The notes under the pieces: generated by a model
Told to the model about the DNA's origin: nothing
What the model saw: the letters and a program-made list of their open reading frames with translations, nothing else
The model's database searches: none
Made by a program: the position numbers and the translations under genes
In this document: piece after piece, positions 21,936 through 46,529 of the stretch
Numbering within the stretch: position 1 is the first letter of the stretch
Layout: each line of letters starts with the position of its first letter
NCBI GenBank assembly: GCA_905339405.1
Contig: CAJPGC010000034.1
Coordinates: 3,052 to 67,051, forward strand
Direction of reading: 5' to 3'
Source of the DNA: an uncultured bacterium
GTDB lineage: Bacteria; Desulfobacterota; GWC2-55-46
Length of the DNA: 64,000 nucleotides

Positions 21936-21976
21936 CAGTTAAGTAAACTGAATTATATACAGGAGGAACCAGAAGT

Positions 21977-23717: not shown

Positions 23718-23720
23718 ACA

Positions 23721-23940
23721 GGCTGCTGAAAACCCATAGCGAGCGTAAGCGAGCGAATAGAAAACGTTATTTCCTTAGGTTTCGAAGCTCACTGCGGCTT
23801 GCCGCTGGGAGCTTCAAAAATCTATCTCCATCTGCTTTGTTGTCTTTGTCGCGCGTCATTGAGGCGTACAAAAGAGTACGCCTCATGACTTGCTCCTCGA
23901 CGCCTCGCATATGGAGTTTTTGAGCAGCCTGAACAAAGTC
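23721..23940. repeat. MITE-like element (same family as 21801-21935) carrying a ~90-bp nested insertion
   Basis: caggctgctgaaaac ... tttttgagcagcctg inverted termini. Extra segment ccatagcgagcgtaagcgagcgaatag...ggagcttcaaaa lies between the TIR and the conserved ctccatctgctttgttgtc block. Confidence 0.5.
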
Positions 23941-23980
23941 GGAATTTTCCAGTAATCAGCTAAAAAGGAGTGACCCTCAG

Positions 23981-24436
23981 ATGGGGCTTTTCGGTTTCGG
24001 CAAGACAGCCGTACACATATCCAGGTCGGTATACGAGGAAATACTCAGTCACGCGAAGGAAGCTTACCCGAACGAGTGCTGCGGAGTGCTCGTCGGCGCG
24101 AACTACGGCGGCGAGCGCAAGATATTCGAATCCCACAGGGCGACCAACGTCAACACGGACAGGGCCCACGACAGGTACATAATCGACCCGAGGGAGTTCA
24201 ACCTCATCGACAAGATGGCAAGGTCGCAGTCGATGGACGTCATGGGCTTTTACCATTCTCATCCAGACCATCCGGACAAGCCCTCCCAGACCGACAGGGA
24301 ATGGGGACAGACCGGCTACTCCTACATCATCGTCGCCGTCAAGGGCGGCAAGGAGACTTCGATGAGGAGCTGGATGATAGAGGACGACACGGCCCCGTTC
24401 ACTGAAGAGAAGATAAAGGTACTCGAAAACCAGTAA
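23981..24436 (+). CDS. JAMM/MPN+ metalloprotease (Mec+/CysO-cysteine peptidase, HcyD-like)
   Basis: JAMM motif HSHPDHPDKPSQTD (H-x-H-x7-S-x2-D) and upstream conserved Glu in NECCGVLVG. Confidence 0.85.
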   Translation: MGLFGFGKTAVHISRSVYEEILSHAKEAYPNECCGVLVGANYGGERKIFESHRATNVNTDRAHDRYIIDPREFNLIDKMARSQSMDVMGFYHSHPDHPDKPSQTDREWGQTGYSYIIVAVKGGKETSMRSWMIEDDTAPFTEEKIKVLENQ

Positions 24437-24558
24437 GCTTTTTTATATATAAAACGAACTCATCGGCCCGGGGCTTTGAAGCCTTGCGGCTTTGGTGCGC
24501 CCCCGAGGGGCATTTTCGCATTTATACTCTGTATATATGAGCCGGAGGAGCCTGTACA

Positions 24559-25383
24559 ATGGATTTCACAGAAGAGCAGATTGAGCGGTATTCGAGGCAT
24601 ATAATACTCCCGGAGGTGGGGGGCAAGGGGCAGGCTAAGCTCCTTAAAAGCAAGGTCTTCGTGCTGGGCGCGGGCGGCCTGGGCTCGCCTTCGCTCCTTT
24701 ATCTCGCGGCTGCCGGCGTGGGCACCATCGGCATAGCCGACGGCGACTCGGTCGACATGAGCAACCTCCAGCGCCAGATAATCCATAACAACGAGCGCGT
24801 CGGAGTGCCAAAGGTCCACTCCGCGAAAGAGACCATAAACAAGCTGAACCCCGACGTCAACGTGCAGCCCTTCCACGGCAGGCTCACCGTCGACAACATA
24901 AGGGAGATAATAAGGGATTACGACGTCGTCCTGGACGGCTCGGACAACTTCCCCACCCGCTTTCTCATGAACGACGCCTGCTTCTTCGAGCAAAAGCCCC
25001 TTGTCTCGGGCTCGATGTTCAGGTTCGACGGCCAGGTCTCGGTCTTCCACCCGAGAAAGGGCTTCCCGTGCTACAGGTGCCTGTACCCGGAGCCCCCGCC
25101 AAAGGGGCTCGTGCCGAGCTGCCAGGAAGCGGGAGTTCTCGGAGCGCTCGCCGGAGTCATCGGCGTACTCCAGGCCGTGGAGACAATAAAACTCCTCCTT
25201 GGCATCGGTGACACCCTCGAGGGCCATCTCATGATATTCGACGCCCTCAAGATGAACTTTCGCAAGGTCAGGGTCAGGAAAGACCCCGAGTGCGCCCTGT
25301 GCGGAGAGAACGCCACAATAAAAGAACTCGTGGCCTATGAAGAACAGGCCTGCGAATACAAACCGGTCACCTGCGAACACTAA
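24559..25383 (+). CDS. MoeB/ThiF-type E1 adenylyltransferase for sulfur-carrier activation (no rhodanese domain)
   Basis: YSRHIILPEVGGKGQAKL. Glycine-rich ATP loop VLGAGGLGSP. CxxC pairs (CYRC ... CALC). 274 aa, so it lacks a C-terminal rhodanese module. Confidence 0.85.
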   Translation: MDFTEEQIERYSRHIILPEVGGKGQAKLLKSKVFVLGAGGLGSPSLLYLAAAGVGTIGIADGDSVDMSNLQRQIIHNNERVGVPKVHSAKETINKLNPDVNVQPFHGRLTVDNIREIIRDYDVVLDGSDNFPTRFLMNDACFFEQKPLVSGSMFRFDGQVSVFHPRKGFPCYRCLYPEPPPKGLVPSCQEAGVLGALAGVIGVLQAVETIKLLLGIGDTLEGHLMIFDALKMNFRKVRVRKDPECALCGENATIKELVAYEEQACEYKPVTCEH

Positions 25384-25588
25384 ACCGGCAGGCTCGCTGA
25401 TTTATTGAGAGAACCTTTTTGTAAAAAGGTTCTCTCAAACTCTCTCCAAAAACTTATAGTTCTTCCCGGGACAACCCCCTTAAGGGGGCTGTCCCGGGAA
25501 CTTAAAGTCTTTGAAGGGGGTCTGGGGGAGACTTTCTACAGAAAGTTTCCCCCAAAAAATCCAGCGGTCTGACGGGCAAGCGAGAATA

Positions 25589-26788
25589 ATGCACAATTAC
25601 CTGGACAATCCGGCGTCCCTCAAGATAGACCTGATGCTTCGGGGCATAAGGATGGAAGACCCCGTCGTGAAGGCCTGGGCCTGCGGCTGTTCGGGCATTG
25701 ACATGCTTCTGCCGCAGGACACGCTCGTCAACATACCCTGCATGGAAGAGTTCACGAGGAACTCGCCGTACACGGTGAAGAGGGCGGGGGAGAGGTATTT
25801 CATTACGGACGGCAGGGCCGAGGTCGAGGTGAAACTCGTGGAAAGGCCGGCCTTCTATTCGAGGAAGACTACCTCCGGGGTGCAGTTCTCGGAGATTGCC
25901 TCCGTTCACGGCAGCTACACGGTAATAACGCCTTCGCCGAGGTGCGACTTTTTCAACCGCAGCATCGAGTGCAGGTACTGCGCCGGGAATTTCGACGTAA
26001 AGGGCTCATCCGACGTCGTCTACACGATAGAGGACATACTGGAGACGGTCGAGGCGGTCCTCAAAGAGAAGGCCTCGGAGGTCATATACCTGTCCATCGG
26101 CTTCAGCCAGGGCGACGACGGCGGAATAGCGTTTTTGAAGCCTTACATACAGGCCATTAAGAAGAGCTTCAACTGCCTTGTGGCCGTGGAGGCGCTGCCG
26201 CCCAGGGACAACCGCTGGATAGACGAGACGTACGCGATGGGGGCCGACTCGGTCCTTTATAACCTCGAGATATTCGACAAGGAGCTCTTCGAGCTGATAT
26301 GCCCGGGCAGGGCTTCCCTCGTGGGGCGCAAAAGATACCTCGAGTCGCTGAAGTACGCCGCGAAGGTATTCCCCAACGGCACTGTGGCTTCCCACCTCAT
26401 TGTGGGGCTCGAGCCTCCCGGGTCTACCTGCATGGGGATAGACTGCTTCACGGACATGGGAGTAGTGCCCATCCTTCCCATCTACAGGCCCTCGGCCGGG
26501 AAGGCGTTGAGGATAGAGCCTCTGACGACTGAGATAATACTGCCGGTCTACAAGCACCTTTACAACGCTGTCAAGAAAAACGGGATAAACCTCTCCTGGG
26601 TGCGTGACATAAGCATGGTGACGACCCCGGCCGAGATACGGGGCCTGGTCGACGGCGGCAAGGGCGGCACTCTCATGGAGAGCTTCTACAAGTCCAGGAT
26701 CGGGCTCAAGGCCGCCTGGGGGCTCTCTACGATAAGGAGGAAGCTCAGGGTCGTAGGCAGCGATGACTCAGACCCTTCGAAACACTGA
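25589..26788 (+). CDS. Radical-SAM-like TIM-barrel protein with atypical cysteine motif (C-x8-C-x2-C); function unknown
   Basis: SPRCDFFNRSIECRYCAG followed by rSAM-like glycine-rich and beta/alpha barrel blocks (VIYLSIGFSQGDDGG, HLIVGLEPPGS). ATG 25589 is chosen. Family not recognised. Confidence 0.4.
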   Translation: MHNYLDNPASLKIDLMLRGIRMEDPVVKAWACGCSGIDMLLPQDTLVNIPCMEEFTRNSPYTVKRAGERYFITDGRAEVEVKLVERPAFYSRKTTSGVQFSEIASVHGSYTVITPSPRCDFFNRSIECRYCAGNFDVKGSSDVVYTIEDILETVEAVLKEKASEVIYLSIGFSQGDDGGIAFLKPYIQAIKKSFNCLVAVEALPPRDNRWIDETYAMGADSVLYNLEIFDKELFELICPGRASLVGRKRYLESLKYAAKVFPNGTVASHLIVGLEPPGSTCMGIDCFTDMGVVPILPIYRPSAGKALRIEPLTTEIILPVYKHLYNAVKKNGINLSWVRDISMVTTPAEIRGLVDGGKGGTLMESFYKSRIGLKAAWGLSTIRRKLRVVGSDDSDPSKH

Positions 26789-28235
26789 TGCTGGAGTTCT
26801 TTGCGTGAGTTTACAAATCGACACCCGGCCAATCTGGCTGATACTGGCCATCAAATGCCTGAGGCCGGTATTTTTCCTGGTCCTTGCCTCGCTGTTCCTG
26901 TATTTCATCTGGATGCCCGCACCCGTGGGCCTCTCAATAGAGGGCCAGCGGGCCATCGCCGTATTCCTCCTTTGCCTCGTCCTGTGGGTATCTAACGCGA
27001 TACCGCTGGCGATAACGGGCATACTCGCCATCGTGCTGGTGCCGGTCCTAGGGATACTCCCGAACAAGGTCACTTATTCCCTTTTCGGGAACGAGGCCGT
27101 CTTTTTCATACTCGGCGCGTTCATCCTCGCGGGCGCGGTCATGCACTCGGGCATATCGAACAGGCTCGCCCTGTACATACTCGACAGGTTCGGGGGCTCG
27201 CCGAGGGGTCTTCTCATAACGGTATTCCTGCTGGCGGCTGCGCTCTCGTTCATAATGTCCGAGCACGCCGTGGCGGCCATGCTCTTCCCCATAGTCATCG
27301 AAATATCCAAGAGCCTGGGCCTCAAGCCCGGGAAGTCCAATTATGGTAAGCTCCTTTTCTTCTCCATGGCCTGGGGTTGCATAATCGGCGGCGTGGCGAC
27401 GTTCCTGGGGGGGGCGAGGGTGCCGCTAGCCGTGGGCATATTGAAGGAGACGACCGGCAGCCAGATAGGCTTTCTCGACTATTCCATCGCCGTCTTCCCG
27501 CTCGTCGTCATACTCCTTTTCGCGGGCTACATGCTCCTTACAAGGATATTCCCCATCGACATAACCGGGGTCGAGGAAGCCCACGGGGTCCTGAAGAAAA
27601 GGCTCAAGGCGCTTGGAAAACTGAGCTTCAGCGAGTACTCGGTCGGGGCGGTCCTCGCCATTACGGTCTTCGCCTGGATAGTCCTGGGCGAGAAGTTCGG
27701 GCTGGCGGCCATCGCGCTGGCCTCTGTCGTGGCCCTTTTCGTCTTCAGGATGGTAAGGTGGAAAGATATAGAAGAATACGTCAATTGGGGTATAATACTC
27801 ATGTACGGCGGGGCCATCGTGCTGGGGTCTGCCCTCGACAAGAGCGGCGCGGCCAAGTGGCTCGTCGGCATGGCTATAGGAGACTGGGCGAGCGAGCCCT
27901 GGGCGGCTTTCGCGCTCTTCTCGTTCCTTTCGATACTGCTTACGGCCGCCATGAGCAACGCGGCCGTCATCGCCGTGCTCCTGCCTGTGAGCATCGGCAT
28001 GGCTCAGACGCTCTCCATCGACCCCGTCATGCTCACTTACGCCATAGCGGTACCGGCAGGCCTCGATTTCATGTTCCCGATGGGCACGCCGGCCATCGCG
28101 ATAGCGGCCTCCTCGAACTACATAACCGTCAAGGAGAGCGCCAAGGGCGGCTTCGTCATGTTCGTCGCCGCATGGGTCGTTTTCAACCTCGTGGCGGCCT
28201 TCTGGTGGCCGCTCATAGGCATGGGCTATAGATGA
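26763..28235 (+). CDS. DASS/SLC13-family anion:Na+ symporter (candidate sulfate permease)
   Basis: Polytopic protein with duplicated hairpin-loop architecture, about 14 TM. The context is next to APS reductase and ATP sulfurylase. The start may lie downstream of 26763 (it overlaps the previous gene). Confidence 0.75.
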   Translation: MTQTLRNTDAGVLCVSLQIDTRPIWLILAIKCLRPVFFLVLASLFLYFIWMPAPVGLSIEGQRAIAVFLLCLVLWVSNAIPLAITGILAIVLVPVLGILPNKVTYSLFGNEAVFFILGAFILAGAVMHSGISNRLALYILDRFGGSPRGLLITVFLLAAALSFIMSEHAVAAMLFPIVIEISKSLGLKPGKSNYGKLLFFSMAWGCIIGGVATFLGGARVPLAVGILKETTGSQIGFLDYSIAVFPLVVILLFAGYMLLTRIFPIDITGVEEAHGVLKKRLKALGKLSFSEYSVGAVLAITVFAWIVLGEKFGLAAIALASVVALFVFRMVRWKDIEEYVNWGIILMYGGAIVLGSALDKSGAAKWLVGMAIGDWASEPWAAFALFSFLSILLTAAMSNAAVIAVLLPVSIGMAQTLSIDPVMLTYAIAVPAGLDFMFPMGTPAIAIAASSNYITVKESAKGGFVMFVAAWVVFNLVAAFWWPLIGMGYR

Positions 28236-28747
28236 AGAAGATACTCCTCGTGCTGTCGTACTCGGGTTTTTCAGGCAAGGCCATCGACGAGGCCGTAGCC
28301 AGGGCCAAAAAGGAGAAGGCGGCGCTTGCCGCCCTTTACCTTCTGGAAGGCGGGGCGGCCGAGAGCGTCTTCGACAAGTTTTCGGATATCGGCTTCATGG
28401 GCGACAGGCCTTCCGAGGACCTCTCCAGGCTCCTCATGAAGGAGTCGAGGCAAAGGGGTTACGAAGCGCTCGGCAAGGTGCAGATAAAGGCGATGGAAGA
28501 GGGCGTCCCGTTCGAGCCGCTGGTGGAAGAGGACGCAACTGTTGAAAAGGTCCTTGCGGTCATCGAAAAGACAGACCCTTCCGCCGTCTACGTGCTCAAG
28601 AGGAAGCAGAGGGCGTTTTTCAAGTATTTTACAAGATCGCTCGCCGACGAGCTTGCCGAAAGGGCAGGCTGCGAGGTGGCGGTGATTACCGAAGAAGGCG
28701 AACAGGAAAAGGAGGACGGTAATGTCAAAGGTATGGACGGAAAGTGA
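28232..28747 (+). CDS. Usp-like alpha/beta domain protein
   Basis: 171 aa. Usp-like N-terminus (KILLVLSYSGFSGKAIDEAV) but no clear ATP-binding glycine motif. Acidic tail. Confidence 0.4.
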   Translation: MKKILLVLSYSGFSGKAIDEAVARAKKEKAALAALYLLEGGAAESVFDKFSDIGFMGDRPSEDLSRLLMKESRQRGYEALGKVQIKAMEEGVPFEPLVEEDATVEKVLAVIEKTDPSAVYVLKRKQRAFFKYFTRSLADELAERAGCEVAVITEEGEQEKEDGNVKGMDGK

Positions 28748-29420
28748 ACTGAAAAATATAAGCGAAAGCCTCGAAGGAAAGGCGCCCGAAGAAGCGGTAA
28801 GGTGGGCGGTAGAGAACTTCGGGAAAAAAGAGCTTTCACTGGCGTGCAGTTTCGGGGCCGAGGACGTCGTGCTGGTAGACATGCTCGTGAAGATAAAGCC
28901 GGACGCGAGGATATTCTACCTGGACACGGACCTGCTCTTCAAGGAGACCCACGAACTCATGGAGAGGGTAAAAGCGAAATACGGCGTTGCCCCCGAGAGG
29001 TACGGCGCGAAAGCAACGCTTGAGCAGATGGAAAAGGACCTGGGCCCGGAGCTCTGGAAGAGGGAGCCGGACAAGTGCTGCGATATTAGGAAGATGGTCC
29101 CGCTGGCCGAGGCGCTATCCGAGCTCCGCTGCTGGATAACCGGCATAAGGCGCGACCAGGCCCCGACGAGGGCTAACGCTCCGGTCGTGAGCTGGGACGC
29201 GAAGTTCGGCCTCGTGAAGGTCAATCCGCTCGTCAGGTGGACCACTAAAGACGTCTGGGACTACATCACGAAGAATAACGTGCCGTACTGCACCCTTCAC
29301 GACAAGAACTTCCCGTCGATAGGCTGCGAGCCCTGCACCAGGCCGGTGGCTCCCGGGGAAGACCCGAGGGCCGGCAGGTGGGCCGGTTTCCAGAAGACCG
29401 AGTGCGGCCTTCACAAGTAG
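28722..29420 (+). CDS. cysH: Assimilatory adenylylsulfate (APS) reductase, thioredoxin-dependent, [4Fe-4S]-containing CysH
   Basis: PAPS/APS reductase fold with the C-terminal ECGLH motif. CC (KCCDIRK) and CxxC (GCEPC) cysteine pairs are characteristic of APS-specific enzymes. Confidence 0.85.
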   Translation: MSKVWTESELKNISESLEGKAPEEAVRWAVENFGKKELSLACSFGAEDVVLVDMLVKIKPDARIFYLDTDLLFKETHELMERVKAKYGVAPERYGAKATLEQMEKDLGPELWKREPDKCCDIRKMVPLAEALSELRCWITGIRRDQAPTRANAPVVSWDAKFGLVKVNPLVRWTTKDVWDYITKNNVPYCTLHDKNFPSIGCEPCTRPVAPGEDPRAGRWAGFQKTECGLHK

Positions 29421-29424
29421 GAAA

Positions 29425-29575
29425 AGATTTGTTGTCATTCTGAAGGAGCAAAGCGGCTGAAGAATCTCGTGCCTGCATCAAAAGACGAGATTCTTCGCTG
29501 CGCTCAGAATGACGAAATTTATAAGCATGAATCATTGTGGCAAACCGGAGCAATACTGCATTTGCTCCGCCCGCG
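29425..29575. repeat. MITE/REP-like palindromic repeat (gtcattctga...tcagaatgac type; related to 13349-13500)
   Basis: ttgttgtcattctgaaggagcaaagcggctgaagaatctcg ... cgagattcttcgctgcgctcagaatgacgaaattt. Confidence 0.55.
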
Positions 29576-29620
29576 ATGTTCTTTATCCTATAAAAAGAAA
29601 ATCCCCAGGAGGTATTTTTT

Positions 29621-30788
29621 CGTGGAAGGACTCATAAGGCCGCACGGCGGAGTGCTCGTAAACAGGATCCTCGAAGGCAAGGAGAGGGAGGACGCCGCCA
29701 ACAGGGCCGCCGGACTCAGGAAGATACGCCTCAACGAAAGGGAGATATCAGACCTCGAGATGATCTCCATCGGGGCATTGAGCCCCCTTGAAGGCTTCAT
29801 GGGCAGGGACGACTACCATTCGGTCATGGACACCATGCACATGAAGAACGGCCTGCCCTGGACGATACCCATAACACTTTCGGTCACGGCCGAAGAGGCT
29901 GGAGCCCTGAAGGCCGGTATGGAAGTGGCTTTGACCGACGGCGAGGGAACCGTGCTGGCCGTCATGTCGATAGCCGAGATATTCCCCCACGACAAGGAAA
30001 AGGAAGCGATACAGGTCTACGGCACCAGCGAGGACAAGCACCCCGGCGTCAAGAAGGTCTACGAGATGGGCGAGATGCTCCTGGGCGGCAAGGTGTCGAC
30101 CATAAAGAGACCTGTGCACACGAAGTTCATGGAAGAGAGGCTCGACCCGAAGGACACGAGGGCCCTGTTTACAGAGAAGGGCTGGAAGAAGGTCGTCGGT
30201 TTCCAGACTAGGAACCCCATACACAGGGCGCACGAGTACATCCAGAAGTGCGCTCTGGAGATAGTCGACGGCATACTCATACACCCGCTCGTCGGCGAGA
30301 CGAAGTCGGACGACATCCCGGCCGAGGTGAGGATGAAGTGCTACAAGGCCCTCATCTCCGGTTACTACCCGAAGGACAGGGTCGCCCTCGTCGTCAACCC
30401 GGCGGCCATGAGGTATGCCGGGCCCAAAGAGGCGGTTTTCCACGCCCTCATCAGGAAGAACTACGGCTGCACCCACTTCATAATAGGCAGGGACCACGCC
30501 GGGGTCGGCAACTACTACGGCACCTTCGACGCCCATTACATCTTCGAGAACTTCGACCCGCTGGCCATCGGCATAACGCCGCTGTTCTTCGACTACACCT
30601 TCTTCTGCAAGTGCTGCGGCGGCATGGCTTCGTACAAGACCTGCCCGCACGAGTCGGCGAACCACATAATCCTGTCAGGCACAAAGGTCAGGGAGATGCT
30701 GAGGAGCGGCGTTTGCCCGCCGCCGGAATTCTCAAGGCCGGAAGTTGCAAAGATTCTGATAGAGGCCATGCAGGGCCAGGCCCAGTAG
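29621..30788 (+). CDS. sat: Sulfate adenylyltransferase (ATP sulfurylase)
   Basis: QTRNPIHRAHE and GRDHAGV motifs. RBS ccaggagg precedes GTG 29621. The ORF-track start at 29469 would read through the repeat element. Confidence 0.9.
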
Positions 30789-30855
30789 TACACAAAAGCC
30801 GCTCTCTGACAGAGAGCGGCTTTTTTTTGACTAATAAAGGGGAGAGGTTTTTTTT

Positions 30856-32034
30856 ATGAGGGAGCTGAGAGAGGAGTACCTGAAGACCGCCGAAGGACTC
30901 AAGGAAAGGCTCACAGCCTTGAGCGACGATTTTTTCAGGAACCCGGAGCTCGGGCTCGAGGAGGAGCGCACCTCCGCCATGATGCAGGATGTTTTGAAAG
31001 AGGCGGGCTTTGTTGTCGAGCCGCACGTTGCAGGGATGAAGACCGCCTTCAAGGCTTCAATCGGCTCCGGGAGCCCAAGGATAGCCTTGCTTGCCGAGAT
31101 GGACGCCCTGCCGGGCATTGGCCACGGCTGCGGCCATAACATCGGAGGGACGGCTTCGATAGGCGCTGGAATAGCGCTGGCCAAGACCCTTTCGGGCCGC
31201 CTCAAACCCGGCCAGGGCACGCTGTTGGTGCTGGGCACCCCTGCAGAAGAGCTCGGCAAGGGCAAGATAGAGATGGTGAAAGCCGGGGTCTTCGAAGGCA
31301 TAGACGCCTCGATGATGGTACACGGCTCATCCAAAAGGACCGTGTTGAAGCACTTCCTCGGCCTTGAGAGGCTGAGCTTCACTTTCCACGGCCGCTCGTC
31401 ACACGCTTCCGCCTATCCGGAGGAAGGCATAAACGCCCTGGACGCCGTGATACTCCTTTTTAACTCAATAGGTCTTCTCCGCCAGCAGGTGAGAAGCGAC
31501 GTGCGTATACACGGCATCATAACCGACGGCGGCAGGAAGCCGAACATCATCCCCGAGAGGGCTGCCGCAAGCTTCTACGTCAGGGCGAACGACCTTAAGG
31601 AGCTGGCCTCGGTAAAGGAACGCGTCATCAACTGCGCCAGGGGAGCCGCGGCCGCTTCGGGCTGCACCGTGGAAGTTGCCAACGGAGGCGACCTGAACGC
31701 TCCGATGAAGATAAACATGGCCTTCATAGAGCTGTACAGGGGCGTATTGAAGTCTTTGGCCCTCAAGGAAGACACCCAGCCGCCCGAGAAGAACGTAGGC
31801 TCCTCGGATATCGGCAACGTCTCGCAGATAATACCGACCATACACCCGCACGTGCCCATTCGTGAGGGGATAAACATCCATACGCGCGAGTTTGCCGAGG
31901 CCACGGCCACGCCGGACGGCCACAGGGCCCTCATGGAAGGCGTTTGCACCCTCGGACTTACCGCAATCGAGCTTCTTTTCAACAGGGAAGCGCTCGAGGC
32001 CGTAAAAAAGGACTTCACAGAAAGCCGGCCCTGA
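30856..32034 (+). CDS. M20D-family amidohydrolase (N-acyl-amino-acid amidohydrolase/hippuricase-like)
   Basis: Metal-binding blocks LLAEMDALP, GHGCGHN, and the dimerisation domain. Confidence 0.8.
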   Translation: MRELREEYLKTAEGLKERLTALSDDFFRNPELGLEEERTSAMMQDVLKEAGFVVEPHVAGMKTAFKASIGSGSPRIALLAEMDALPGIGHGCGHNIGGTASIGAGIALAKTLSGRLKPGQGTLLVLGTPAEELGKGKIEMVKAGVFEGIDASMMVHGSSKRTVLKHFLGLERLSFTFHGRSSHASAYPEEGINALDAVILLFNSIGLLRQQVRSDVRIHGIITDGGRKPNIIPERAAASFYVRANDLKELASVKERVINCARGAAAASGCTVEVANGGDLNAPMKINMAFIELYRGVLKSLALKEDTQPPEKNVGSSDIGNVSQIIPTIHPHVPIREGINIHTREFAEATATPDGHRALMEGVCTLGLTAIELLFNREALEAVKKDFTESRP

Positions 32035-32234: not shown

Positions 32235-32822
32235 ATGATAGATTTGAGGAACTTCACCAGAAGAACGATAATGATCAAGCCCGACTACCAGTTGAGGCTT
32301 GCCGTCAAGGTCTCGTTAAGCATCATCCTGTACTCGTTCATACTGGGCTTCATAATCTTTTACCCGCTCTACCAGGACCTCATGTCCGCCGCAACCATCG
32401 AGAAGCAGGCGGTCATCTCTTCAGTCGTGCTCTATTTGCACAAGAGCTTCTGGCCCGGGTTCGTCCTCGTGGCTCTGCTCGCGGGGCTTCAGGCCATCTG
32501 GTCTTCGCACGCTCTGGTGGGCCCGATGTACAGGTTCGAAAAGACGGTGCAGGAGCTCATCTCCGGGAACTACTCCATCAGGATAAAGATAAGGAAAAGG
32601 GACGAGTTCAAGGAGATGGAAGGGTTCCTGAACAAGCTGGCCGCGACCCTGGAAGAGGCCAGGACCAGGGACAACCAGTTCTACCATGACGCAAGGATAA
32701 AACTTGAGACGATAAAGGCGATGCTCGAGGCTGAAGGGGCGGAATATCCCGCTGACGTCAAAAGGCTCGCGCAGGAGCTCATCTACGAGCTCGACGCGAG
32801 GGACGCTTACCGCGCAAGGTAG
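32235..32822 (+). CDS. Membrane protein with two TM helices and a HAMP-like domain
   Basis: Two TM segments followed by HALVGPMYRFEKTVQELISGNYSIRI (HAMP-like) and a coiled coil. Confidence 0.4.
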   Translation: MIDLRNFTRRTIMIKPDYQLRLAVKVSLSIILYSFILGFIIFYPLYQDLMSAATIEKQAVISSVVLYLHKSFWPGFVLVALLAGLQAIWSSHALVGPMYRFEKTVQELISGNYSIRIKIRKRDEFKEMEGFLNKLAATLEEARTRDNQFYHDARIKLETIKAMLEAEGAEYPADVKRLAQELIYELDARDAYRAR

Positions 32823-32833
32823 ACCGGACAAAG

Positions 32834-33313
32834 TTGATGACGACCTACGTCAGGGCTTTTAAAACGGCTGGAAAGCAAAAAGGCTTCACTCTTTTGGAGC
32901 TTCTCATCGCCGTAGCCATTGTGGCCGTTCTCGCGGCAATCGCAGTGCCAGCCTACATCTCTTTCATCCAGAGGGCGAAGGAGACGGCCGTCATATCCTA
33001 TCTCACGAAGATGAGGTCAGCACAGGAGACTTATAAGCTCGACGACGCCTCGAGCTTCTATTCGGGAAGTTTCGACGAGCTCGAGACGACCGGGTTCATC
33101 CCGGCCGCAGCCGGGGCCGCCTCAAGGGTGGAGCACGAATATCAGCTCGACCTTACAGCCGGTGTATTGGGCGGCGAGCCTTTCTGGAACGTCCTGGCAG
33201 CCCCGCTTTCCGCGAGCCCCAAGGCAAGACACTTCTACGCAGACCAGACAGGGATTTTAAGGTACGCCGTGGGCGCACCGGCAGGCCCTGGCAGCGCGCC
33301 TGTCGGCAGGTGA
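32834..33313 (+). CDS. Type IV pilin-like protein (prepilin-type N-terminal cleavage/methylation domain)
   Basis: GFTLLELLIAVAIVAVLAAIAVPAY, with G-1/F+1/E+5. Confidence 0.75.
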   Translation: MMTTYVRAFKTAGKQKGFTLLELLIAVAIVAVLAAIAVPAYISFIQRAKETAVISYLTKMRSAQETYKLDDASSFYSGSFDELETTGFIPAAAGAASRVEHEYQLDLTAGVLGGEPFWNVLAAPLSASPKARHFYADQTGILRYAVGAPAGPGSAPVGR

Positions 33314-33440
33314 TGTTTTCCCAGTATAATCAAGCTGTTCCGTTCTTGGCTGATGACTTTGGCCGCTGAATGTGCTATATAGTTTTTGCAGGCCACGCGC
33401 GCTTTTCCGCCCGGCCGGCCTGCTGAAAAAGGAGGCGTCG

Positions 33441-34613
33441 ATGAAGCACAGAGCCCTCTGTCCCGGGCACAATCCCGGCATCTTTTTCACTCTGCTCGTA
33501 TCCCTGTTCCTCGCGTTCCTTTTACCCGTTGCTGCCAGCTCTGAAGAACAAATGACAATCGATTCGACCGGCACAGCCTCGATAAGCCCGGGCGGCCCAG
33601 CTTCGGCGAGGGACGCCGCAATAGCCGACGCGTTGAGGAAAGCCGTCGAGCAGGCCGCAGGTACTCTGGTGGCCTCCGACACGCTCGTTGAGAACTTCCA
33701 GGTATTGGAAGACAGCGTCTATACGAAAAGCCAGGGCTTCGTCAAGAGCTACTCCATAATATCCGAGGGGCAGCAGGCCGGGTTGTACGAGGTCAGTGTA
33801 AAGGCTGTCGTTGCAACAGGCGCCCTCGCTGGCGGCCTCGACGCGCTTGGCCTCTTGCAGAAAAAGGCGGAGCGCCCGCGCGTGCTTTTCATGGTGGCTG
33901 AGAAGGGATTTGCCTTGAGCGAGTACGATTATTGGTGGAACAACGAAGGGCGAGCGCGCCGGATTTCAGCAACAGATGCCGCTCTCAAACAGGCCTTTAT
34001 TTCAAAGGGCTTCAACGTAGTCGACGGCAGGGCAATAGATGGTCTGCTGGGCCCCATTGGCGTTGACGTTACGGAGCAGGACGCGGCAAGGATGGGCAGG
34101 GCGCTCGACGCTGAGGTCGTCGTCTTCGGGAAAGTCTTCATCGAGGAGGGGCCGTCCTCAGGGGCCACTTCCATCGTAACCTACATGGCGGACATGACGG
34201 CCGAGGCCGCGAGGGTCGACGACGGGGTTGTGCTCGCCTCCCAGAAGGGTCGCGGAATCTCAAGGCACATATCAGCCGTGACGGGCAGCGGGGAAGCGGT
34301 AAGCAGGGCCGCCGCGATAGTCGCGGAAGGGCTCACAACGCAGATAGCCGAGAAGTGGGCAGGCCCGCAGACCATCCGCATAACCCTCAAAGGCATGGAC
34401 TACGGAAAGGCGGTCGAGTTCAAGCGTTTCCTCAAGACCAGGGTGAGGGGCATAGAGGCCATCTACCAGAGGCGGCACGCAGAAGGGGAGACCGCCCTAG
34501 AAGTGGAAGTCAAGACAGGCGCGCAGGCTGTGGCCGACGAGATAGCGAGGCACGGGAAGTACAGGGTCATTGGTTTCAGCGCCCACGCGTTAGAGGTCGA
34601 GGGGGCTGAATAA
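33441..34613 (+). CDS. LPP20/FlgT-like periplasmic/lipoprotein
   Basis: Signal peptide, then repeated LPP20-like alpha/beta modules (ASARDAAIADALRKAVEQAAG...). RBS aggagg precedes ATG 33441. Confidence 0.5.
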   Translation: MKHRALCPGHNPGIFFTLLVSLFLAFLLPVAASSEEQMTIDSTGTASISPGGPASARDAAIADALRKAVEQAAGTLVASDTLVENFQVLEDSVYTKSQGFVKSYSIISEGQQAGLYEVSVKAVVATGALAGGLDALGLLQKKAERPRVLFMVAEKGFALSEYDYWWNNEGRARRISATDAALKQAFISKGFNVVDGRAIDGLLGPIGVDVTEQDAARMGRALDAEVVVFGKVFIEEGPSSGATSIVTYMADMTAEAARVDDGVVLASQKGRGISRHISAVTGSGEAVSRAAAIVAEGLTTQIAEKWAGPQTIRITLKGMDYGKAVEFKRFLKTRVRGIEAIYQRRHAEGETALEVEVKTGAQAVADEIARHGKYRVIGFSAHALEVEGAE

Positions 34614-35375
34614 GTGCGTTTTCCAGCTGCGAGGCTTTTTTTCCTTCTCGGCATCGTGTTTGTCTTAGCCTCTTGCGCGGCGCACACGCCCCGGTACGCC
34701 CCTGATTATTCAAACCCCGTCTACACGGTAGCGGTGCTGCCGTTCTACAACGTCACGAACGACGTGGGCGGGGCGATGGGGCTCCGTGAGGATTTTCAGA
34801 GGAGGCTCGAGCACAGGCACTACAAGTTCATGCCCTTGAAGGAGGTCGATGAGATCCTCCTCAACAGGATGGGCATAACACTAGGCGACCAGCTAGAGAT
34901 GACCGACGCCATGGAGCTCGGCAAGGTACTCGGTGTTGACGGCCTGGTCTACGGCTACGTGCTCGACTTCGACGACGTAACGACCGGCGTTTACAACGTG
35001 AAGAAGGTGAGGGCAGGGTTCAAGCTCGTTGACGCGAAGACTGGAAAAGTCCTGTGGACCGGCGCCAGGGGCGTCAAGAGCGTCATCGCGGGAGGCAAGG
35101 CTGGCGTCGGCATAAGCGTTCTTAAGGAGGCGGCTGGCGAGGACAGCTTCAGCTCCTACGGGATAAAGGGGCTCGACGAGATAGAAGGGCTGGACGACTG
35201 GCACATAATACGCGCGGGAGCGACGAAAAGGTTCGAGGACGCGGCGATGCTCTCGCTCGGTGAGATGCTCATAACGAAGGCCTTTGGCGTCCACCTGTGG
35301 CTCGAGTCGAACACGATGATGGAGATGGTCATGAGGGGCTTCCCTTCAGGGCCGGGGACGCCGAGGCACGAATAG
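34614..35375 (+). CDS. DUF799/GNA1162-like lipoprotein
   Basis: Lipobox LASCA. YTVAVLPFYNVTNDVGG resembles the DUF799 family found with CsgG-like genes. Confidence 0.55.
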   Translation: MRFPAARLFFLLGIVFVLASCAAHTPRYAPDYSNPVYTVAVLPFYNVTNDVGGAMGLREDFQRRLEHRHYKFMPLKEVDEILLNRMGITLGDQLEMTDAMELGKVLGVDGLVYGYVLDFDDVTTGVYNVKKVRAGFKLVDAKTGKVLWTGARGVKSVIAGGKAGVGISVLKEAAGEDSFSSYGIKGLDEIEGLDDWHIIRAGATKRFEDAAMLSLGEMLITKAFGVHLWLESNTMMEMVMRGFPSGPGTPRHE

Positions 35376-35410
35376 ACGGCACAACACGCATTCATTCAAA
35401 GGAGGCAGTG

Positions 35411-36373
35411 ATGAGGTTCAATTTTAACAGGTTCAATGGTCTGCTTGCCGTCTCTCTGGCGGCCGGCGTCTTTTTCGCTGGCTGTTCGCCCACAACGACG
35501 GGTTCGGTCAAAGAAGACGTCTCCCTGACGGGGCAGACGCAGGCATTGAAGGAGACGGGCACCCAGTACAGGGGCCCGGAGTACAACATAGCCATACTCG
35601 AGTTCGAGAACAAGACCCCGAGCAAGAGCCTCGGCGTCGGCGAGGCCGCAACCGACATCATGCGCACGATAGTGAAGCAGGCCGGGCTCGAACCCATCGT
35701 CGTGACTAAAACCGAGCTCAAGGAGCAGGAGAGGCTCATGGAGCTCCAGCAGTCCGGGGCCGTGAAAACTGGCCTCAAGAAGGCGGACGAGGGATACGAT
35801 TCGCTCGACTACAGGATAGCCGGTTCCGTGACGGCGTATCACGAGGTCGAGGAATCTTCCAACGTGCTCTTAAGCCAGAAAAAGACGCGCATCGCCAGGG
35901 TGCAGGTCGATTATTCGCTCGTGGACGTTGCCACGGGCAAGTCCCTGGTCTCGGATTCCGGCATGGGCGAGTACACCAAGACCACCGGCGGGATGCTCGG
36001 CATGGGCTCCAAGTCGACGGCAGACCCGGGCCTGCGCGACGGCGCGTTGAGGGACGCTCTGGCGAAGGCGTTGACCAGCATGGTCGCGAAGCTCAACGAG
36101 ATGCCCTTCACCGGCAAGGTCCTCCACGTTGACGGCAGGAGCGTCACCATAAGGGCCGGCACTAGGAGCAGGGTAGAGCCCGGCACGGTATTGTCGGTCT
36201 ACAGCACGGGGGTCGACCTTGTCGACCCTGACACCGGAAGGGTCATCGGCAAGAGGGAGAAGCTCATAGGCGAAATCAAGCTTGCCGAGCACCAGGGCGA
36301 GAGGATATCCGAGGCCGAGGTGAGTTCAGGCACAGGCTTCAAAGTGGGAGACGTGGTAAAGGTTAAAAAGTAG
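35411..36373 (+). CDS. CsgG-family (curli production assembly/transport component-like) outer-membrane lipoprotein
   Basis: Lipobox FAGCS and the conserved CsgG block NIAILEFENKT...GEAATDIMRTIV. About 320 aa. Confidence 0.7.
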   Translation: MRFNFNRFNGLLAVSLAAGVFFAGCSPTTTGSVKEDVSLTGQTQALKETGTQYRGPEYNIAILEFENKTPSKSLGVGEAATDIMRTIVKQAGLEPIVVTKTELKEQERLMELQQSGAVKTGLKKADEGYDSLDYRIAGSVTAYHEVEESSNVLLSQKKTRIARVQVDYSLVDVATGKSLVSDSGMGEYTKTTGGMLGMGSKSTADPGLRDGALRDALAKALTSMVAKLNEMPFTGKVLHVDGRSVTIRAGTRSRVEPGTVLSVYSTGVDLVDPDTGRVIGKREKLIGEIKLAEHQGERISEAEVSSGTGFKVGDVVKVKK

Positions 36374-36382
36374 GAGGTCGGC

Positions 36383-37582
36383 ATGAAAAGCCTCTTCAAG
36401 GGCGTTCTGTTCGCGTCCGCTGCGCTTTTGCTCGGCGCGGGCTGCGCCAAGCCTGTAGTGAAGTGCCCGTCCCCAGGGGACAGCCCTCAGCACCATTACA
36501 TTGCGGGCATGGAGCTCCTCGAGCAGGGAAGCCTTGAGGAGGCCGCCTCGAAGTTCGAGCGGGCCTCTTTTTGCGACGGGGAATACGGCCCGGCCCACGC
36601 CGGAGCCGCTCTCGCGGCCGTATTGAAGGCAAAGGAAGTAGCTGACCCTGATTACAGGAAGATAGACCTTGAAAAGGCCGCCGAGCGAATGAAGGCCGCC
36701 TGGAAGAATTCCAGGACCCCTGAAGACAAGGCCGCCTATCATCTCGCGTCAATGCGCATGGAGACCGCCCTCAAGCAAGGTGACTGGCTCGAAGGGGTTG
36801 AAGACGCCAAAAAAGCCGCCGTAAAGCTCGATACAGACGAGGAGAAGTTCCTTTATTACAAGGTGCCGGAGGCGGCCGATTATTTCATGGGCAGAGCGTA
36901 CCTCGAGGCCGGGGAGTTCCAGAAGTCGAGGGACAGCTTCGGCGCTGTCTTGAACGCCCGTTCTTCGGGCAAGTGGCACGGCGCTGCCGACAAGGCGTGG
37001 AAGCGGACCGACAAGGTCGTAAGGGCGCTTTCCGGCATGACCCTCGGGGACGCAGGAAAGAGGATAGCGGTGCAGGAGAGCGTCACCAGGGCCGAGATGT
37101 CCGCGCTCCTCGTCGACGAGCTTAAAATAGATAAACTCTTCGCCGGACGCATTCCTGCAAAGCCCAGGGACGGCGGTTTCGTCCCCATGGACCTCAACTC
37201 AAGCCCGTTCAGGGAAGAGGCCGCTACCCTCATTAAATGGAACGTCCGGGGGCTCGAGCCCTCGTATGACGCTTCAACGAGGGCGTACCTCTTCAGGCCG
37301 GAGGAGCCCGTGAAGAGAAAAGAACTCGCGATGGTCCTCGAGGACGTTGTCGTGAAGCTCACCGGAGACGAAGGCGCCTCTTCGGCCTTCCTGGGCCACC
37401 GTGCTTCGCCGTTCCCGGACATAGAGCCGACTTCGGCGTGGTATAACGCCACAATGAGCGTGACCACGAGGAACATGATGGAAACGGAACTTACAGGCGA
37501 GTTCAGGCCGGATGACGTGGTCGACGGCGCTGAAGCCGTCATGGCGATAAGGGCGTTGAAGTACAGGCTGAACATCAATTAG
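36383..37582 (+). CDS. Lipoprotein with N-terminal TPR-like helical domain and C-terminal SLH-like repeats
   Basis: Lipobox LGAGCA. TPR-like helices. Three SLH-like motifs (VTRAEMSALLVDEL, VKRKELAMVLEDVV, DVVDGAEAVMAIRAL). Confidence 0.45.
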   Translation: MKSLFKGVLFASAALLLGAGCAKPVVKCPSPGDSPQHHYIAGMELLEQGSLEEAASKFERASFCDGEYGPAHAGAALAAVLKAKEVADPDYRKIDLEKAAERMKAAWKNSRTPEDKAAYHLASMRMETALKQGDWLEGVEDAKKAAVKLDTDEEKFLYYKVPEAADYFMGRAYLEAGEFQKSRDSFGAVLNARSSGKWHGAADKAWKRTDKVVRALSGMTLGDAGKRIAVQESVTRAEMSALLVDELKIDKLFAGRIPAKPRDGGFVPMDLNSSPFREEAATLIKWNVRGLEPSYDASTRAYLFRPEEPVKRKELAMVLEDVVVKLTGDEGASSAFLGHRASPFPDIEPTSAWYNATMSVTTRNMMETELTGEFRPDDVVDGAEAVMAIRALKYRLNIN

Positions 37583-37596
37583 CCAGGAGGCTTGCA

Positions 37597-38412
37597 ATGA
37601 GAAAACTCCTTCTTTTAACGCTCCTTTTCCTCCTTGCGGCTTTTCCTGCGCACGGCGAAACTCCCCGGGAGACCAGGGACGCCAATGAGGCCTTCGTGAA
37701 CGGAGCCATAGTCGTCAAGGGCGAAGGCGCTTCCCCGCAGGGCTTTTTCACCGTCGCGCAAAAAAGGATAATGGCCCTGAGGGCGGCAAAGGCTGGCGCG
37801 TTCAGGGAGACGGCGGAGATACTCGACGGCGTGACAGTCTCGGGCGAGACGACGGTGCTGAACGCCTCCGCGGAATCGGACGTCGTCAGGACGAGCGCGG
37901 AAGGCATAGTGAAGGGCGCAACCGTTGTAAAAGAAGAGTACGACCCTGTAACCGGCATTGCGGCAGTATACCTTTCAGTGCCTATGCAGGGGGTGGCGGC
38001 GGCCCTTGTTCCGCAGTTCTCAGGCATGGTCTCGGCTGTCCCGGCATATTCCCCGGGGATGAACGCTTCCACTGCAGGCTACGACGGGCTAATAGTAGAC
38101 GTACGCGGCCTCAAGTTCAAGCCGGCCCTTTTCAACAGGGTCCTTTCCAAGAACGGCGAAGCCCTTTTCGACCCTGCCAGGACAGGGCAGGGCGCATCCG
38201 GCGGAGCGATGGCCGCGTACACCAACAGCCTGACAGACGCGAGGGCCATCCTTACCAAAAAGGGCTCGGCAAACCCGCTTGTCGTCAAGGCCTCGGCGGT
38301 GGCGGCGTCGACCGACGCCGAGCTCGGCCCCATTGAGGCGGCCGCGGTCTTCTATTCCAACCAGAACCCCAGGTTCCTCGAGGCGGCCAAAGTGGTTTTC
38401 GTCCTCGATTGA
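37597..38412 (+). CDS. LPP20/FlgP-like secreted protein
   Basis: Signal peptide. AQKRIMALRAAKAGAFRETAEIL is an LPP20-like motif. Ala/Gly-rich. Confidence 0.5.
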   Translation: MRKLLLLTLLFLLAAFPAHGETPRETRDANEAFVNGAIVVKGEGASPQGFFTVAQKRIMALRAAKAGAFRETAEILDGVTVSGETTVLNASAESDVVRTSAEGIVKGATVVKEEYDPVTGIAAVYLSVPMQGVAAALVPQFSGMVSAVPAYSPGMNASTAGYDGLIVDVRGLKFKPALFNRVLSKNGEALFDPARTGQGASGGAMAAYTNSLTDARAILTKKGSANPLVVKASAVAASTDAELGPIEAAAVFYSNQNPRFLEAAKVVFVLD

Positions 38413-38448
38413 GTCCGCGTAAATAATCAAAACTCCAGGGAGGCATGC

Positions 38449-39180
38449 GTGAAAAAGCTCGGGGCACTATTGTTTCTGGCAACTCTTTTTACCGCGTCAA
38501 ACGCCTTCGCCGTCGTCGACGTCGAAGGCAGGTACTGGCTTACCACCATGGACGACGAGATCAGATCAGGGGCCTCGGGGACGGACATCAACCTGGTCGA
38601 CGACCTCAGGGTCGACGACAAGGAGAACTTTTTCGATTTGAGGGCCACCCTCGAGCTCGGCAGCCACAAGCTCCGCTACGGGTATATGCCCTTGAGCTGG
38701 GAAGGGGCAACTACTACCGGCGCTCCCATTAACTTCGGAGGCGTGGTCTTCCCTGCGGCTGCCACGAGCACGAAACTCGACATCGACTACCACCGCCTCG
38801 GCTACGAATACGATATAATAGATACTTTGAACAACCGTCTCGGGGTCATATTCGAGATAAAATACTTTGACATCGACGCGAGCCTCTCTTCTCCAGGCCT
38901 CGCACAGACCGCGAGCGTGAAGGCCCCTGTGCCCACTATTGGGGTTGCCGCCCAGGTAGGGCTGCCCTTCCTTCTGAGCGTCGGTGGAGAGGTCACCGGT
39001 ATAAGCCTCGGCTCGGCTGCCTGGCTCGTTGACGCTGAAGCCGGCGTGAACTTCAAGCCAGCTCCTTTCGTGGTCGTCTCTGGCGGGTACAGGCTCCTGA
39101 AGTTCCATTTCGATTATGACGACGACCTTGTAGATATTTCGGTCAACGGGCCGTTCGTCATGCTGAGGGCCGATTTCTGA
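38449..39180 (+). CDS. Outer-membrane beta-barrel protein
   Basis: Signal peptide ...SNAFAVV. Alternating strands. C-terminal ...FVMLRADF. Confidence 0.5.
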   Translation: MKKLGALLFLATLFTASNAFAVVDVEGRYWLTTMDDEIRSGASGTDINLVDDLRVDDKENFFDLRATLELGSHKLRYGYMPLSWEGATTTGAPINFGGVVFPAAATSTKLDIDYHRLGYEYDIIDTLNNRLGVIFEIKYFDIDASLSSPGLAQTASVKAPVPTIGVAAQVGLPFLLSVGGEVTGISLGSAAWLVDAEAGVNFKPAPFVVVSGGYRLLKFHFDYDDDLVDISVNGPFVMLRADF

Positions 39181-39190
39181 AGCCGAGTTG

Positions 39191-39240
39191 TACAGAGGGA
39201 GCCACTTGTGGGCTCCCTCTGTGAATTTGTTCATTTTCAT
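39191..39240 (+). terminator. Intrinsic terminator after the lipoprotein/OMP cluster
   Basis: cagagggagccacttgtgggctccctctg hairpin followed by a T-rich tract. Confidence 0.55.
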
Positions 39241-39358
39241 GCCTGAAACTATCCATCTGCTTTGTCAGGGCTGCGGGTCTGAATCCTCACATACTTCAAA
39301 GTATGTGAGGTTCAGCCCCTTGCCCTTCCTTGCATCTTGATGTTTCGAGGCATGAAGT
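39236..39358. repeat. MITE-like element (ttcatgcct...aggcatgaa terminal inverted repeats; shares the ccatctgctttgt block with 21801/23721 copies)
   Basis: ttttcatgcctgaaactatccatctgctttgtcagg...gaatcctcacatacttcaaagtatgtgaggttcag...tttcgaggcatgaag. Confidence 0.5.
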
Positions 39359-39815
39359 AATATAACCAGCTAAATACCGGCGTTTTCTTCAAAAAAGGTC
39401 CTCTCAAGAACTCTCAGGGCTTTTGAAAGGCACGTTTCCCGTCATCTCGTCTGGTTTCCCCGTTTACAGCTAGCACCCTGATTTTTGCTTTTTTGCATCC
39501 TGGCCAGTGTGACCCGGGGCGGGCGTCCTGTTTTTGATATAACCTTTTAGAAGGAGTTCCCTGAGCGGAAGCGGGCTGTATGCGGCTGGTCAATTGGGCA
39601 GGCTTTTATAGAATATTTTTGATTTTGGAATGATTATGGTTTATAAATAAGAATTTCATGTCAGAGGGGCCCCCTTTTTGGCGGGGCAGGGTTAAAGTGT
39701 CAAGGCGGCGCGCCGGACGGCCGATGAGTCTGAATGGCCGCCAATTCGCTTGCGTGTGGCCATGTGTTCAATTCAGGAAGCCGTGAAGTAAAGCCCTAAA
39801 AGGGTTCGGAGAGAA

Positions 39816-46463: not shown

Positions 46464-46511
46464 TTGACAGCTTGGAGTGAATTTACTATCATAAACTGAC
46501 AATTTTTGTCA
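46464..46511 (+). promoter_or_regulatory. Sigma70-like promoter with overlapping TGACA-N5-TGTCA palindromic operator upstream of pilB
   Basis: TTGACA (46464-46469), a 17-nt spacer, TATCAT (46487-46492), then the palindrome TGACAATTTTTGTCA (46497-46511). Confidence 0.5.
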
Positions 46512-46529
46512 CCAACACTATCAGGGACG

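Follow-up and report, generated by a model that had tools for sequence, protein, structure and literature searches.

A 64,000-nucleotide stretch of DNA from an uncultured bacterium (contig CAJPGC010000034.1, referred to below as the window) carries a block of eight co-directional open reading frames (ORFs), designated g1 to g8, at positions 32235-39180 on the + strand. The last six of these genes (g3-g8) are read here as encoding an oligomeric, outer-membrane-anchored periplasmic ring scaffold that is tethered to the cell wall, and not a curli-type pore. This is the reading we prefer, and it is put forward tentatively. Independent gene calls on a 99%-identical contig (GCA_030834745.1) returned the same genes with the same lengths, and the eight consecutive co-directional genes listed by an earlier reading made without database searches (the sequence-only reading) were all present. 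That reading had described g3-g8 as a six-gene lipoprotein/outer-membrane cluster. The six genes were recovered, but a lipobox was found in three products only (g4, g5, and g6), and ordinary signal peptides were found in g3, g7, and g8. Its assignments of g3 (LPP20/FlgT-like), g4 (DUF799/GNA1162-like lipoprotein), g6 (TPR lipoprotein with SLH-like repeats), g7 (LPP20/FlgP-like), and g8 (outer-membrane beta-barrel) were borne out by the matches given below.

In the proposed scaffold, g4, g5, and g6 would be anchored by their lipid tails to the inner face of the outer membrane, and the soluble periplasmic proteins g3 and g7 would join these lipoproteins via SHS2-type domains. The beta-hairpin inserts of the SHS2 domains may zip subunits into rings, as is presumed for flagellar basal disks and H-rings. 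The three SLH repeats of g6 would bind the cell wall or a wall polymer, and the g8 barrel would provide an integral outer-membrane foothold in the lineages having g8. The product would probably be a ring-shaped scaffold between outer membrane and wall, either stabilizing the envelope or serving as a collar or dock for another envelope machine. Oligomerization, ring shape, wall binding, and the physiological role are the parts that we infer. The Vibrio proteins FlgT, FlgP, and FlgO assemble beneath the outer membrane into concentric, lipid-anchored rings with no pore (bioRxiv 10.64898/2025.12.02.691832), and the beta-hairpin insert of the FlgP family was tied to ring formation in a study of the Campylobacter motor (PMC12222027).

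The gene on which the choice between pore and scaffold turns is g5 (35411-36373, + strand), a lipoprotein whose alpha/beta domain is of CsgG/FlgT-M type and whose C-terminal beta-domain is FlgT-C/TsaP-like. Its lipobox is FFAG-C25, and Cys25 was invariant across 45 sequences. The Pfam CsgG family (PF03783) was matched at 23.1 bits against a cut-off of 20.8, a marginal pass, and a precomputed PF03783 match was attached to nearly all g5 homologs among the matches listed. When a profile of 45 g5 homologs was searched against PDB sequences, neither CsgG nor FlgT was found. The same profile gave a weak match to the TsaP beta-domain only (residues 244-320, E 6e-4), and its hhalign comparison with E. 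coli CsgG returned a probability of 1.5%. Given that these sequence-profile comparisons missed both proteins, the kinship of g5 with CsgG and FlgT rests on the Pfam match and the predicted fold. In Foldseek searches with the AlphaFold model of g5, the top match was FlgT (Vibrio LPHT ring and crystal structure, 3w1e/8z5n; E 1.5e-14, 290 columns), followed by CsgG (E 3e-10, ~215 columns) and then by PelC, HpaA, GNA1162, and LptE. As modeled, g5 is the alpha/beta core common to CsgG and FlgT-M plus a FlgT-C-type beta-domain.

Conserved flanking motifs served as anchors for comparing hairpin lengths, and an hhalign comparison with E. coli CsgG confirmed the register. The bracketed CsgG stretches (transmembrane segments TM1 and TM2) are 26 and 27 aa long, and we take them to be the membrane-spanning hairpins that build its 36-strand barrel. 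In all 41-42 g5-family sequences with both flanking motifs matched, the TM1 equivalent was 17 aa (HEVEESxDxLLxQxKKx, 33% charged) and the TM2 equivalent was 16 aa (TKTTGGxLGxGSKSTA, polar). The g5 model showed a single extended polar hairpin with a Leu-Leu tip. Judged by these sequences, the segments appear too short and too polar to cross the outer membrane in the manner of CsgG, and g5 is unlikely to be a pore. Of the CsgG-family lipoprotein channel named by the sequence-only reading, the family (marginally) and the lipobox stood, but the channel did not: hairpins of CsgG length are lacking and FlgT was the best structural match. "Channel" was an interpretation rather than an observation.

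With the curli channel CsgG (type VIII secretion), g5 shares its lipoprotein state and alpha/beta core fold; it differs in the short polar hairpins and in its extra C-terminal domain. In Pfam/NCBIfam scans, with the E. coli csg locus for comparison, no Curlin, CsgE, or CsgF match was found in any cluster protein. A curli identity was rejected on the hairpin length of g5 and on the absence from the locus of the csgE, csgF, csgA, and csgB-like genes that curli loci have.

The sequence-only reading had proposed a dedicated export or anchoring system for a surface fiber or S-layer component. In that case, g5 would be a CsgG-type (type VIII-like) channel that, with the lipoproteins and the barrel, exports or anchors a fiber, an exopolysaccharide, or an S-layer component. 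The layout of g4 (a PelC-like lipoprotein), g6 (a TPR lipoprotein), and g8 (a barrel) resembles that of the exopolysaccharide export modules PelBC and AlgK/AlgE, and PelC and PelBC were among the Foldseek matches of the g5 and g3 models. PelC/PelB and LptE/LptD modules have in common with the cluster a TPR protein, a beta-barrel, and a TolB-N/LptE-like fold, which Foldseek places in the g3 middle domain and g5 and GNA1162 homology in g4. Unlike those modules, the cluster encodes its TPR protein and barrel in separate genes and has no synthase or Lpt genes, and its barrel is much smaller (~220 aa), as it also is beside known polymer porins. The score of g5 over the Pfam CsgG gathering threshold and the rank of CsgG as second-best structural match favor export. 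So does a csgG-like deletion in a CsgG/lipoprotein/GNA1162 cluster of A. baumannii, which abolished poly-N-acetylglucosamine (PNAG) and chaperone-usher pathway (CUP) pili (bioRxiv 10.1101/2021.05.19.444899). The short, polar hairpin equivalents of invariant length argue against it. Pfam/NCBIfam scans of the block found no fiber subunit, curlin-like protein, CsgE/F-like accessory, S-layer protein, polysaccharide synthase, or glycosyltransferase. The neighboring pilin is optional and apparently transcribed separately, and pilins use secretins, not CsgG. With no substrate or accessory gene in the block and an optional pilin, the export proposal was not upheld, and we consider it unlikely.

The ring-scaffold reading also draws on g3 and g7. 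The product of g3 (33441-34613, + strand; 390 aa) is a periplasmic FlgT-like protein with an ordinary signal peptide and three domains: SHS2/FlgP-type at the N-terminus, TolB-N/DUF3280-like alpha/beta in the middle, and ferredoxin-like at the C-terminus. The Pfam FlgT_N model was matched at 36.4 bits (cut-off 28.8), and the NCBIfam model of Leptospira LipL46 aligned across most of the length (E 6e-11). The AlphaFold2 (AF2) model had a predicted local distance difference test (pLDDT) score of 78.7, and its top Foldseek match was FlgT (3w1e/8z5n; E 2.4e-11, 378 columns). The N-terminal domain resembles FlgP weakly, also in the hairpin region, where the monomer model has low confidence. In some lineages, g3 orthologs reach 550-566 aa and carry an extra ~150-aa C-terminal domain behind a Pro-rich linker.

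The product of g7 (37597-38412, + strand) is a periplasmic FlgP homolog with an ordinary signal peptide (…AHG/ETP) and without a lipobox. The protein alone scored 17.9 bits against LPP20, below the threshold of 25.9. The profile of its orthologs matched FlgP structures from C. jejuni (9hmf_C, E 3.7e-15) and Vibrio (8z5n_2, E 2.9e-11). In the alignment with FlgP, the one gap is of a single residue and precedes the helix; the presumed ring-forming beta-hairpin insert is ungapped. Behind a Pro-rich linker, g7 continues into a conserved ~110-aa C-terminal domain (residues ~160-271) that has no Pfam match. The only match to this domain, a weak one (E 5e-4), was to Tp0624, an envelope protein of Treponema pallidum (residues 126-260). 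That stretch is tentatively assigned to the tandem-domain unit of Tp0624, which was previously uncharacterized.

The same matches raise the question of whether these proteins are true flagellar outer-ring (H-ring or basal-disk) components encoded apart from the flagellar genes. FlgT was the best structural match of both g3 and g5, g7 is a clear sequence homolog of FlgP, and g3 orthologs bear the NCBI name "flagellar assembly protein T N-terminal domain-containing". The cluster is made of the same elements as the H-ring and basal disk (Vibrio FlgT-FlgP-FlgO; Campylobacter FlgP): g3 has the N and M domains of FlgT, g5 has its M and C domains, and g7, like the N-domain of g3, has an SHS2 domain of the FlgP type with a hairpin insert. 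Unlike those structures, the cluster lies in a non-flagellar locus with no sign of an LP-ring to surround, its FlgP homolog is unlipidated, and its GNA1162-like, SLH-TPR, and barrel partners are no known flagellar parts. Neither the window ORFs scanned nor the annotated flanks of related loci contained a flagellar gene, and conservation of the core follows g4 and g5, not the SHS2 proteins. A role in the flagellum itself is very unlikely on this evidence.

The partner of g5 in the core is g4 (34614-35375, + strand), a GNA1162/DUF799-family outer-membrane lipoprotein with the lipobox LASC. It matched the Pfam GNA1162-like family at 45.4 bits, and its ortholog profile matched the GNA1162 crystal structure (PDB 4hrv) at E 1.2e-14. 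Some g4 orthologs of 450-550 aa bear an added domain (in L003, a faint match to DUF4412).

Adjacent CsgG-family and GNA1162-family genes are also found, with a third envelope protein and without curli genes, in the CsgG-like/GNA1162 (DUF799)/small-lipoprotein clusters, which are widespread and of uncharacterized function (the A. baumannii "csgG cluster" and the N. meningitidis GNA1162 locus). The third member there is a small LPP20/DUF4810-type lipoprotein. Its counterpart g3 is LPP20-related through FlgT_N, but is a FlgT-like periplasmic protein of 390 aa with three domains and no lipobox. Further differences are the extra FlgT-C/TsaP-like beta-domain of g5, the added SLH-TPR lipoprotein, FlgP homolog, and barrel, and the hosts, which here are uncultured Thermodesulfobacteriota, Nitrospirota, and Nitrospinota. 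The locus is an extended variant of this widespread cluster. A literature search for functional studies of DUF799, DUF4810, or GNA1162 returned none beyond the A. baumannii preprint, in agreement with the sequence-only reading, which had called CsgG/DUF799/LPP20 trios known but functionally uncharacterized outside curli.

The remaining lipoprotein, g6 (36383-37582, + strand; 399 aa; lipobox GAGC), has an N-terminal TPR region and three C-terminal SLH-like repeats. The Pfam SLH model was matched at 32.1 bits (cut-off 20.8) over three SLH-like stretches. Among orthologs, 47/48 matched SLH (best 9e-16) and 36/48 matched TPR_2, and the g6 profile matched the PDB SLH entry 8bz2 at E 8e-4. SLH domains in OmpM and SlpA tether the outer membrane to the wall (PMC10628300, PMC9388160). 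By analogy, g6 is a putative wall anchor. It shares with the tethers OmpM (diderm Firmicutes) and SlpA (Deinococcus) an SLH region on an outer-membrane-anchored protein, which implies non-covalent wall binding. Here, unlike in OmpM and SlpA, SLH is carried by a Lol-type TPR lipoprotein and is not fused to a porin, the barrel is encoded separately (g8), and the host belongs to the Gracilicutes. A survey of tethering systems described SLH/CsaB as "practically absent in the Gracilicutes" (bioRxiv 10.1101/2021.05.31.446380), which makes it unusual for these lineages to have a conserved SLH lipoprotein. No CsaB or curli gene was found among the window ORFs scanned. An S-layer component was rejected as an identity for the SLH protein: the sole SLH protein is the 399-aa TPR lipoprotein g6, and SLH on such a protein fits a wall tether better than an S-layer component.

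The last gene, g8 (38449-39180, + strand), encodes a small outer-membrane beta-barrel of ~220 mature residues that ends in …LRADF. The NCBIfam barrel family TIGR04219 aligned over its full length at 62 bits, under the cut-off of 105, and 36/36 orthologs matched this family. No solved relative of g8 was found.

Relatives were collected by scanning one genome per species, which gave 186, and the best 80 loci of these 186 were kept. They belong to Thermodesulfobacteriota, Nitrospirota (including Ca. Manganitrophus), and Nitrospinota, together with a few contigs labeled Gammaproteobacteria. The co-conservation counts that follow use as denominators only those loci with sufficient flanking sequence. 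A protein search with g5 returned 454 matches at E≤0.001, and the 120 listed were 60-96% identical. The organism names among the matches listed were all uncultured "Deltaproteobacteria"/Thermodesulfobacteriota, plus one metagenome-assembled genome (MAG) of Nitrospirae. Cultured hosts were sought through a "Ca. Tenderia" homolog search, which returned mainly Nitrospirota MAGs, and every host found was uncultured.

The gene g4 adjoins g5 in 78/78 loci. Alongside g5, g3 was found in 51/64 loci, g6 in 55/74, g7 in 45/69, and g8 in 42/63. By lineage, g6 was present in 0/11 Nitrospirota loci and 6/6 Nitrospinota loci, in the latter with its order swapped (a g7-like gene before a g6-like gene), and g8 occurred in 42/48 delta-type loci and in none of the other phyla. 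The short g3 versions of Nitrospirota retain the middle domain only, and one 4.7-Mb contig (L091) is a metagenome assembly that carries only the g3-g5 trio. The universal core is g4 with g5, mostly accompanied by g3, and the six-gene form is an elaboration of Thermodesulfobacteriota. Variants with a long g3 or g4 or with a swapped gene order were seen in Nitrospinota (L038, L042, L048, and L050-L052) and in L072, L070, L068, and L081. A subclade (L044, L053, L056, L060-L062, L071, and L080) has g4-g5, a divergent g6 (~30% identity), and g8, with g3 and g7 undetectable. The SHS2-domain proteins can thus be missing together.

Within g3-g8 (33441-39180), the intergenic gaps are 0, 35, 9, 14, and 36 nt, and 127 nt separate the pilin gene g2 from g3. 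The GTG start of g4 abuts the TAA stop of g3, with a ribosome-binding site (GAGGGGG) inside g3. The statement that starts lie a few nucleotides from the preceding stops therefore held for six junctions (0-36 nt) but not for the pilin-g3 junction. A promoter-like motif of the extended -10 type (33355-33381, + strand; GACTT-N11-TGTGCTATATA) lies 87 nt upstream of g3. When the pilin-g3 intergenic region was aligned among relatives at only 46-70% protein identity, the sole conserved block was GA[CT]TT-N11-TnTGnTATAnA. This motif precedes g3 in 13/57 loci, the pilin-less L010 and L016 among them, and is rare, with 15 matches only across 2.3 Mb of collected loci sequence. A sigma-70-like site at 33303-33330, the best of a promoter scan, was dropped as the g3 promoter, being unconserved among relatives. 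In a sigma-54 promoter search, the only credible site was the pilA promoter at 53916, with none for g1-g3.

The terminator hairpin that the sequence-only reading had placed at 39191 is real. It is an intrinsic terminator (39191-39223, + strand) with a 13-bp stem of 8 GC pairs and a folding free energy (dG) of -29.8 kcal/mol (z -6.2); 0/200 shuffles folded equally well. It falls in a 636-nt non-coding gap downstream of the cluster (39181-39815). Given that the conserved motif upstream of g3 is present also without the pilin, the layout supports an operon of its own for g3-g8 and a separate, optional transcription unit for g1-g2. The six genes are co-conserved, strongly so in uncultured sulfate-reducer-like bacteria, and, by their gaps, motif, and terminator, look co-transcribed.

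Of the upstream pair, g1 (32235-32822, + strand) encodes a 195-aa membrane protein that has two transmembrane segments, a region resembling HAMP, a short coiled-coil tail, and no output domain. Its Pfam HAMP score was 13.7 bits, under the cut-off of 25, and in NCBIfam it aligned with the TM2-HAMP region of BaeS (E 9e-10). The type IV pilin-like gene g2 (32834-33313, + strand) has the class III signal KQKG/FTLLELL (G-1, F+1, E+5). The prepilin N-methylation motif (N_methyl) was matched at 37.6 bits (cut-off 21.2), and the resemblance of g2 to pilin families is confined to the N-terminal helix. The pilin signal claimed for this pair was thus found, and the HAMP assignment was supported weakly, below the Pfam threshold. 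A pilin precedes the cluster in 13/59 loci and the HAMP gene in 14/59; where present, they always sit between an M20 peptidase gene and g3. The window encodes the major pilin at a different place, as pilA (54031-54423). By its sequence and placement, g2 is best described as an orphan accessory pilin, with g1 and g2 as facultative neighbors outside the core cluster. The earlier inclusion of the pilin as a cluster component was not retained, given its presence in 13/59 loci only and the 127-nt gap with a promoter-like motif.

The pilin bears also on a possible type IV pilus accessory, in which the cluster would form a TsaP-like collar around the PilQ secretin, g6 would serve as a TPR pilotin like PilF/Tgl, and g2 would supply the pilin. 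The C-terminal domain of g5 resembles TsaP beta-domains (the weak match at E 6e-4 given above), the g6 TPR region resembles PilF weakly (E 4e-3), a pilin is adjacent in 13 loci, and a pilBTC-pilSR-pilA locus lies 7 kb downstream. The TsaP and PilF matches are, however, weak or generic, the cluster is without a secretin gene, the pilin is absent in 46/59 loci, and the Nitrospirota trio is distant from any pilus genes. This role is highly improbable.

Downstream of the cluster, ~30 related loci (L005:11224-14694 and, for example, L013, L020, and L024) carry co-directional mlaE-mlaF-mlaD genes and a 300-aa TPR gene directly after it. The MlaD is unusually long (351 aa), and the mla block precedes a response-regulator kinase gene. 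No Mla homolog was found anywhere in the 64-kb window, and the mla block is missing from the closest relatives too; the window has the 636-nt non-coding gap in its place. The adjacency suggests another role, in which the cluster would be the outer-membrane dock of an MCE/Mla-type trans-envelope lipid transporter, in the manner of PqiC-PqiB or LptE-LptD. Consistent with this, the folds of g3 and g5 match LptE and the DUF330 lipoprotein (XCC0632), which we take to be PqiC-like. The lack of Mla homologs in the window speaks against it, as does the restriction of the adjacency to one subclade, where it could be inherited synteny, and its absence from Nitrospirota and Nitrospinota loci. We regard such a dock as distinctly unlikely.

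Several observations weigh against the ring scaffold. The g5 model is only moderately confident (pLDDT 67.5), and TM-scores in Foldseek were low (0.3-0.5), in part an effect of domain orientation. The g5 product does pass the Pfam CsgG threshold, and the tips of its short hairpins are hydrophobic (LL, GGxLGxG) and could insert shallowly in a membrane. The g7 protein and its orthologs have signal-peptidase-I type signals with no cysteine and, unlike FlgP, are unlipidated. Nitrospirota retain only g3 (middle domain), g4, and g5. In L008 (MAG SJ296, g5 79% identical; 5700-7900), g3 is reduced to a ~70-aa ORF remnant with the signal peptide and C-terminal tail only, and g6 is gone, with g4, g5, g7, and g8 intact. 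This natural double loss suggests that g3 and g6 are dispensable or functionally linked. Since the accessory genes vary in this way, a scaffold of this kind would be no fixed machine.

A broader form of the ring-scaffold reading, unlikely in our estimate, is that the cluster would encode a flagellum-independent organelle resembling an H-ring or basal disk, with lipid-anchored rings beneath the outer membrane that SLH repeats pin to the wall, in Gracilicutes thought to be without SLH tethering. The cluster would then stand for an ancestral pool of CsgG/GNA1162/LPP20-type lipoproteins that later supplied the flagellar outer rings (FlgT, FlgP, and FlgO) and the curli pore.

With an architecture common to g5 and FlgT, rings and envelope defects become sensible targets for study, rather than secreted fibers. 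The tie between the trio and FlgP-type ring formers bears on how flagellar motors gained outer disks, and a three-repeat putative SLH wall anchor is placed on a Lol-type lipoprotein in Thermodesulfobacteriota and Nitrospinota. The two surprises are a "CsgG" member that is unlikely to be a pore and an SLH lipoprotein within Gracilicutes. All hosts found were uncultured. The present value of the locus is as a hypothesis generator rather than as a result.

Upstream of the cluster, the window contains a conserved sulfur-assimilation neighborhood (19026-32034), and the same flank is found in relatives. Its genes include two for pyridoxal phosphate (PLP)-dependent (cysteine synthase-like) proteins, a sulfite/nitrite reductase-like gene, ThiF, a radical SAM gene, a Na/sulfate symporter, phosphoadenosine phosphosulfate (PAPS) reductase, ATP sulfurylase, and the M20 peptidase. 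Downstream, a complete type IV pilus block (46506-56220) comprises pilB (46506-48230), pilT (48301-49467), pilC (49471-50691), pilS (50693-52372), pilR (52379-53791), and pilA (130 aa). Behind pilA comes a gene for a polytopic membrane protein of 592 aa that ends in TPR repeats (54442-56220), and 100 nt upstream of pilA lies a perfect sigma-54 -24/-12 element (TGGCACGGCCGTTGCA, 53916-53931). Elsewhere in the window, an 888-aa fusion of an MFS-type transporter domain and a spermidine/spermine synthase domain is encoded at 8991-11657. A 311-aa protein encoded at 16791-17726 matched the "Protochlamydia outer membrane protein" (Pom) porin family at 194 bits, which was unexpected outside Chlamydiae.

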